Shown: positions 19,421 to 20,072, numbered from the stretch's first letter. The stretch: 32,000 bases of DNA from Blochmannia endosymbiont of Camponotus nipponensis (GCF_009827135.1 NZ_CP046534.1:390001-422000), one strand, 5' to 3'. Made by a program: numbers and translations. Notes: generated by a model not told the origin, from the letters alone.

Positions 19421-20072
19421 ATGCTAACCTCCTCACTGCACAAATAACTCCCACCTTAACAGAAACATCCTCAAAAACAGCTCCCATAACAACAAATTTA
19501 TTATCCCCACAGTACAACATAGAAAACCCCAACTCCAAATACTTTGCTTTACATACATACATACATACATACATACATACATACATATATATATATACTT
19601 TACTGCCGTTTGAGCAGTATACCAATTATATTTAAAAGAATTAATAAATTCAAGAATAAAAAAATAGATTAATTATTGTTTGTTAAGGTGTTTCATTAAT
19701 ATTTGTTGTTTATTGATGATTAGGTGATGATATTTAATGATGGTTTTGATTGTAATGGATGATTTTAGTTGTGCAATTGAGGATTGATGTAGTAGTATAA
19801 AGAGTTAAAGATAAAAAAAATTAAAGTTGTTATTTGTTTGTTGATTTTTGTTTGGTGTTTGTAGTTGTGTTGTTGTTTTAGGTAAATATTTTTGTGTATA
19901 TTATTGTAGAAAAGTAATTTGTGATTTGTGTAGGTGATGTATATATGTGTTTATGTGTATTATTATATTGAATTGATGATGGGTTTGATAATAGAATATT
20001 GATGTGTATTATAATTTTTCTTGGAGATTATGAAAGATTATATAGTTTGTTTTGTATTATTGTTAATACTAC
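19421..20072. other. candidate chromosomal replication origin region (strand-composition switch)
   Basis: Hand counts on the + strand: 19421-19620 has C=57, G=12. 19621-19680 is 88% A+T (C=3, G=4). 19681-19880 has G=48, C=2. Going 5' to 3', the change from negative to positive GC skew is the origin polarity. The region is adjacent to mnmG (gidA), as oriC is in E. coli. No GATC sites and no perfect DnaA box are visible. Confidence 0.6.
19551..19597. repeat. (ACAT)9 tetranucleotide microsatellite continuing into (AT)6
   Basis: Read directly: nine perfect ACAT units at 19551-19586, then about six AT units to roughly 19597. It lies 131-177 nt upstream of the mnmG start codon on the opposite strand. 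It is responsible for the spurious MYVCMYVCMYVC ORF at 19398..19625. Confidence 0.95.

Follow-up and report, generated by a model that had tools for sequence, protein, structure and literature searches.

A strand-composition switch beside mnmG marks the likely replication origin of a Camponotus Blochmannia without dnaA at its canonical locus

[quoted passage not shown] The window analyzed here is a 32-kb stretch of the 788-kb chromosome CP046534. A contig from the same sample (L092), identical to the window across a 5552-nt overlap, added 10.5 kb and extended the right arm to window-equivalent position 42.5 kb, so that skew was covered over about 42 kb in total. The reads underlying CP046534 are SRR10605340, from which two Logan contigs of 24 kb and 20 kb were used. 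The strain belongs to the Camponotus Blochmannia, as its MnmG is 100% identical to the NCBI protein of a Blochmannia endosymbiont and its MetA, over 95% of the query, to one whose host is given as Camponotus nipponensis. The genome announcement of CP046534 is silent on the replication origin (PMC7365800).

Base counts on the + strand gave A79 C57 G12 T52 for positions 19421 to 19620 and A53 C2 G48 T97 for positions 19681 to 19880, a highly significant difference in C and G content (C57/G12 vs C2/G48, Fisher p = 2.7e-19). The 60 nt in between, 19621 to 19680, contain A32 C3 G4 T21 and are thus 88% A+T. An earlier sequence-only reading of the window had proposed this site as a candidate origin, and its hand counts for all three segments were reproduced exactly, as was the A+T content of the core. 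A two-state model fitted to the spacer's G/C bases (168 in the 652 nt from 19421 to 20072) placed the change from C-rich to G-rich between 19607 and 19654 (LR = 116.7, 2-lnL support interval), that is, within 48 nt or less. The cumulative skew minimum of the window lies at 19607. A switch from negative to positive GC skew in 5' to 3' direction has the polarity of an origin, and this polarity beside mnmG, also part of the earlier proposal, holds within the roughly 42 kb examined. GC skew in 1-kb windows ranged from -0.06 to -0.40 over positions 1 to 19500 and from +0.12 to +0.50 over 19501 to 32000, with AT skew flipping in the complementary sense. The putative left replication arm spans 1 to 19606 (+ strand C-rich, GC skew about -0.25) and the right arm 19655 to 32000 (+ strand G-rich, skew about +0.2 to +0.4). 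The flip reaches at least 19.6 kb leftward and at least 23 kb rightward, skew still being positive at 42.5 kb on the additional contig.

Gene orientation changes at the same point. The left arm carries gyrB and dnaN on the minus strand, rpmH, rnpA, yidDC and mnmE on the plus strand, and glmU and the atp operon again on the minus strand, followed by mnmG (gidA) as its last gene (17522 to 19420, minus strand, 632 aa; TIGR00136, 901.9 bits). To the right of the spacer, tRNA-Ile (GAT; 20073 to 20147, plus strand) is followed by metA and pgi on the plus strand, rsmD on the minus strand, and ftsY, rpoH, metE, udp and rmuC on the plus strand. The additional contig continues this arm with rmuC, ubiE, ubiB, ubiD, dsbA, an intact polA and engB, the latter on the minus strand. 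Overall, 12 of 16 left-arm protein genes lie on the minus strand and 13 of 15 right-arm genes on the plus strand. Gene and tRNA calls thus bear out the orientation flip described before, together with every gene name and strand assigned at that time. Two gene models deserve comment. The longest metA open reading frame starts at 20464, whereas the 297-aa NCBI protein implies an annotated start at 20509, 15 codons downstream; the family profile aligns from residue 16 of the longer frame. Further, yidD and yidC form one fused 639-aa open reading frame at 5233 to 7152 (YidD at residues 12 to 67, YidC from residue 89), a fusion known in most Blochmannia (PMC4389277).

The switch is a change in replication direction, neither the boundary of an inversion nor a pure transcription effect. 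Among the 16 left-arm genes tested, 4-fold-site skew was negative without exception, even in rpmH, rnpA, yidC and mnmE on the + strand (pooled G30:C54, p = 0.012); in the 14 right-arm genes it was positive throughout, also in rsmD (G8:C2) and engB (G6:C5) on the minus strand. Neutral-site skew was similar on both arms, about -0.3 to -0.7 compared with +0.3 to +0.6, and no intermediate zone was seen up to 23 kb. We consider it very unlikely that the flip is a mere transcription or gene-orientation effect at divergent promoters, unlinked to replication direction, even though several observations point that way: sense strands are G/T-rich and the genes on both sides point away from the spacer, the change-point interval of 19607 to 19654 coincides with where mnmG transcription is predicted to start and with its predicted promoter, relatives with almost no right-arm skew still have a strongly skewed mnmG leader, and genes running against the majority orientation have a weaker skew when all sites are counted. 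At their 4-fold sites, however, these counter-majority genes keep the sign of their arm, as seen in the pooled left-arm counts and in rsmD and engB. Gene orientation alone is also insufficient to produce the skew because relatives with the same gene orientations show zero or negative skew over metA to rmuC.

Intergenic skew is extreme close to the switch: over roughly the first 4.2 kb on its right side (19681 to 23619), G:C counts of intergenic stretches are 87:5, 64:6, 84:10 and 7:0. It falls to about +0.25 to +0.3 past rsmD (24196 to 32000). The 4-fold sites of metA and pgi carry no excess that would match the extreme skew of the nearby intergenic DNA.

Much of this is expected from what has been published on the genus. 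The origin as defined by GC skew adjoins mnmG in B. pennsylvanicus and most other Blochmannia (PMC4389277, PMC3268670), a skew shift near mnmG is common to B. pennsylvanicus and E. coli (PMC3268670, PMC3017870), and a putative B. pennsylvanicus origin by gidA is attributed to Degnan et al. 2005 in PMC3017870. B. vafer and B. floridanus have their switch at a distance of 31.5 kb from mnmG, in the spacer between yibN and hldD, and searches for DnaA boxes failed in these two genomes as well (PMC3017870, PMC3268670); the published view is that of a single origin relocation in their ancestor. B. floridanus has the strongest skew among 352 chromosomes (PMC2099444), and strong bias in symbionts of this sort has been tied to missing recA, priA and similar genes (PMC2671203). 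Position beside mnmG, loss of dnaA, absence of DnaA boxes and very strong skew are thus all on record, and the feature described here is the expected orthologous one in one more strain, a general fact that would not surprise a specialist.

The closest known counterpart is the origin of B. pennsylvanicus and B. chromaiodes, which belongs to the same genus, occupies the same spacer from mnmG to tRNA-Ile/metA, is likewise without dnaA and without a DnaA-box cluster, shares the mnmG promoter block and has its skew step at the homologous place. The two differ in the extent of the right-arm signal. Over rsmD to ubiD, pooled 4-fold sites were G122:C62 (+0.33) in our strain compared with G128:C127 (0.00) in a CP097759-like relative (Fisher p = 9e-4), so that in this pennsylvanicus-group genome right-arm neutral skew vanishes beyond pgi; in relatives of this group, positive 4-fold skew is confined to metA and pgi. 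C-depletion of the spacer is also far stronger here, with G95:C9 compared with G56:C21. B. vicinus and the C-003 symbiont had right-arm 4-fold skew of about zero or below, B. ocreatus had negative values and B. floridanus strongly negative ones. Left-arm skew was negative in all relatives compared, mostly about -0.3 to -0.7. B. vafer and B. floridanus resemble our strain in being DnaA-less and in having an origin that is placed from skew only. Their mnmG spacers, in contrast to the switch seen here, have more C than G throughout, and 4-fold skew over metA to udp is strongly negative in B. floridanus and mostly negative in B. vafer. Over the +23 kb that the comparison between lineages covers, the graded right-arm skew points to repeated changes in where the origin lies or how it is used, or to mixed use, among the DnaA-less lineages.

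Because skew integrates history and origins have moved within the genus, replication may nowadays begin at a site other than the switch. Taken to its full extent, this would make the switch a relic of a former origin, with initiation now taking place elsewhere or at several sites and skew lagging behind. The 31.5-kb displacement in B. vafer and B. floridanus (PMC3017870, PMC3268670) lends this some plausibility, as do relatives of the same gene order whose right-arm neutral skew runs from zero to strongly negative, which points to a labile origin position or use in the DnaA-less clade. Still, we regard a relic as quite improbable for this strain, where the matching neutral skew of the two arms and the lack of an intermediate zone up to 23 kb fit long-standing use. 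Least credible is that a local inversion, or a rearrangement of another kind, ends here and no replichore boundary is involved. An inversion of more than 23 kb would look alike within the roughly 42 kb visible, and a separately made assembly is interrupted at 19579, in the microsatellite. Yet seven of seven other Blochmannia genomes share the gene order mnmG/tRNA-Ile/metA/pgi/rsmD/ftsY/rpoH/metE/udp/rmuC and the orientations to either side of the spacer, which argues against a lineage-specific inversion edge; all of them have the conserved promoter block, located right of the microsatellite, linked to mnmG; and the position equals both that of gidA-oriC in E. coli and that of the published B. 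pennsylvanicus origin (PMC3268670). The local inversion boundary that the sequence-only reading had named as the case against its own proposal is thus not borne out. A replication origin in the mnmG spacer accordingly stands as the preferred reading of the switch.

The candidate origin lacks the hallmarks of its E. coli counterpart. No exact DnaA box (TTWTNCACA) is present in 19421 to 20072, no GATC occurs from 19199 to 20727, and E. coli-type GATCTnTTnTTTT 13-mers are absent from the spacer; the first reading of the window had listed the same three absences, and each is confirmed. DnaA boxes with one mismatch number five in the spacer, where about 2.6 would be expected from the window-wide rate, and 127 window-wide compared with 134.8 in shuffles, which amounts to no enrichment. 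An nhmmer profile built from 43 enterobacterial oriC regions gave a best E-value of 8 against eight Blochmannia spacers. By eye, the GTTATTAGGATTGTA of relatives is similar to the E. coli R 13-mer region CTTATTAGGATCGCA, and we rejected this as residual oriC homology in view of the nhmmer result.

In enterobacteria, dnaA is located between dnaN and rpmH. The corresponding gap of our strain (4399 to 4735) is 337 nt long and contains no dnaA remnant as judged by its translations, which gave no Pfam hit at E <= 1, showing that dnaA has been deleted from its canonical locus. The gap between gyrB and dnaN (3021 to 3294), where recF is missing, is likewise short and AT-rich; recF and dnaA are both gone from the gyrB-dnaN-rpmH cluster, leaving short AT-rich gaps with no detectable remnant. 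According to published comparisons, dnaA is missing in all sequenced Camponotus Blochmannia (four by 2015); B. turneri has an intact copy and B. obliquus a pseudogene (PMC4389277). The absence of oriC hallmarks probably follows from the loss of dnaA. The site had been described as a possible highly divergent origin, which is apt in so far as it is a candidate origin without E. coli hallmarks; a diverged DnaA-dependent oriC does not fit, given that dnaA is gone from its locus. Compared with E. coli oriC in the gidA-mioC interval, the switch has the same place beside mnmG, with mnmG transcribed away from it, and the same skew polarity. It differs in that dnaA at the canonical locus, R boxes, GATCTnTTnTTTT 13-mers and a GATC cluster are all missing, and in that mioC and asnC are absent, with tRNA-Ile and metA following instead. 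At an Escherichia sp. locus (L013) used for comparison, oriC begins about 88 nt from the mnmG ATG.

The spacer alignment that had been suggested as a check was carried out using five Camponotus-clade Blochmannia genomes and did reveal conserved blocks. The best conserved of these outside the tRNA is found at 19624 to 19653, with a mean pairwise identity of 0.85 compared with 0.44 for the whole spacer. Based on this conservation, we predict a sigma-70-type promoter directed toward mnmG at 19625 to 19653 on the minus strand, with a -35 element TTGAAT (19648 to 19653) that is invariant in all five genomes, a -10 element TATAAT (19625 to 19630) that reads TATAAT or TACAAT among them, and an A-tract upstream of the -35 element at 19654 to 19664. 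The interval between the two elements is 17, 17, 17, 17 and 16 nt in the five genomes; its sequence varies while its length is kept. The case for the promoter is built on conservation because promoter-like matches are as common in shuffled sequence as in the spacer (9 in the spacer, 9.1 in shuffles).

The 88% A+T core is most likely this predicted mnmG promoter. As an exceptional feature in its own right we rejected it, since 4% of the 60-nt intergenic windows of the analyzed stretch are at least as AT-rich. The two A-rich 13-mers at 19636 and 19652, noted before for their similarity, are present and agree at 11 of 13 positions. As unwinding repeats they do not hold up: shuffles of the 60-nt core contain a pair alike at 11 of 13 positions or more in 24% of cases and a 10-of-13 pair in 79%, and the repeat is not conserved in relatives. 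One 13-mer lies in the interval between the two promoter elements, the other in the A-tract immediately upstream of the -35 element.

Between the predicted promoter and mnmG lies a predicted leader of about 197 nt (19421 to 19617, minus strand), the start of which was placed from the -10 box. It is C/A-rich on the + strand and would give a G/U-rich mRNA, and this composition is conserved among relatives while the sequence is not. Counting the left portion of each spacer gave G8:C56 for this strain, G3:C34 for CP097759, G25:C66 for a chromaiodes-like contig and G7:C43 for C-003. Repeat scanning identified a (TACA)11.5 microsatellite within the leader at 19550 to 19595. A Logan contig assembled independently from the same reads, SRR10605340_11, has its end within this microsatellite, at 19579, and the TACA copy number and the join across it are for this reason those of the deposited assembly alone; adjacency of the two flanking sides is backed by synteny in seven relatives. 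A mir-297 match at 19546 to 19598 scored 32.7 bits against a gathering score of 90 and was discarded as an artefact of the CA/TG microsatellite, and no RNA family except tRNA was found in an Rfam scan of the spacer. Open reading frames in the spacer are short and of low complexity, with no family match.

The right half of the spacer (19681 to 20072, + strand) is G/T-rich with G87:C5. It contains two further blocks conserved in the five-genome alignment (19768 to 19797 and 19827 to 19856) and, at 19878 to 19907, a block homologous to the promoter-like TTGAAT...TATTGT found upstream of tRNA-Ile in relatives. When the five-genome spacer profile was compared with the spacers of B. ocreatus, B. vafer and B. 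floridanus, only this tRNA-Ile promoter-like block was recovered, and weakly so (E = 0.47). Starting at the last base of tRNA-Ile, positions 20147 to 20188 form an inverted repeat with perfectly matched 16-nt arms and a loop of 10 nt. It is nearly all A/T and was for that reason not called by a terminator scan; it may be a hairpin for tRNA 3' processing or termination.

As to how the composition arose, the lagging-strand template would be single-stranded for longer during replication and prone to C-to-T deamination, which would leave leading strands G/T-rich. Loss of restart and repair genes, which Blochmannia lacks, would amplify this skew (Klasson and Andersson, as summarised in PMC2671203) and make it one of the strongest known, and transcription co-directional with replication would add to the bias, most of all in the mnmG leader. 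The visible flip would then begin at the predicted mnmG transcription start, with the AT-rich core as promoter. The 60-nt sharpness of the flip is likely in part a transcription-start effect rather than a replication-start effect because the change-point coincides with the predicted mnmG start and the leader is strongly skewed also where a relative shows little right-arm skew. For the start of replication, no finer placement than about 19.4 to 20.1 kb is warranted.

Bidirectional synthesis would presumably start in or close to this spacer between divergent promoters by a DnaA-independent route, and strand opening or priming might, with low confidence, be helped by transcription from the mnmG promoter. 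The conserved predicted promoter lies inside the change-point interval. In the DnaA-less Camponotus Blochmannia, topA and topB have reportedly been lost along with dnaA (PMC4389277), and priA, recA and topA are reported as absent in B. floridanus (PMC2671203). A more far-reaching proposal, which we put forward tentatively and consider rather unlikely, is that transcription from the mnmG promoter starts replication in these symbionts by opening the strands or providing an RNA primer once type IA topoisomerases have been lost, with the choice of site, or the share that each site takes, depending on lineage. A parallel exists in E. coli rnhA or topA/topB mutants (cSDR/RLDR, oriK), which likewise replicate without DnaA or oriC (PMC10187895). 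Here, a predicted promoter is located at the skew change-point. RLDR in E. coli uses many weak start sites, not a single sharp one. Classical R-loop initiation (cSDR) needs PriA and RecA, both reportedly absent in B. floridanus (PMC2671203, PMC1472245), and the classical RecA/PriA pathways have been ruled out for DnaA-less insect symbionts (PMC1472245). On the sense strand of the mnmG leader, 200 nt contain 57 G and 12 C; with 28% G and scattered GGG/GGGG runs more than 10 nt apart, the leader does not look like a strong R-loop-forming sequence.

In conclusion, the switch allows coordinate 1 and the replichores of CP046534 to be set; public records of B. floridanus and B. chromaiodes begin at the mnmG ATG. 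Its position in this strain is narrowed down to at most 48 nt and falls on a conserved predicted promoter, and among the eight genomes compared this strain has the cleanest two-armed skew. If the tentative proposal of transcription-dependent initiation were true, lineage-dependent initiation sites would explain why right-arm skew is +0.33 in this strain, 0.00 in a pennsylvanicus-group relative and strongly negative in B. floridanus. These points make the strain well suited to studying how replication is initiated in endosymbionts without DnaA, and they are relevant to whether the genus has seen one shift in origin use or several.
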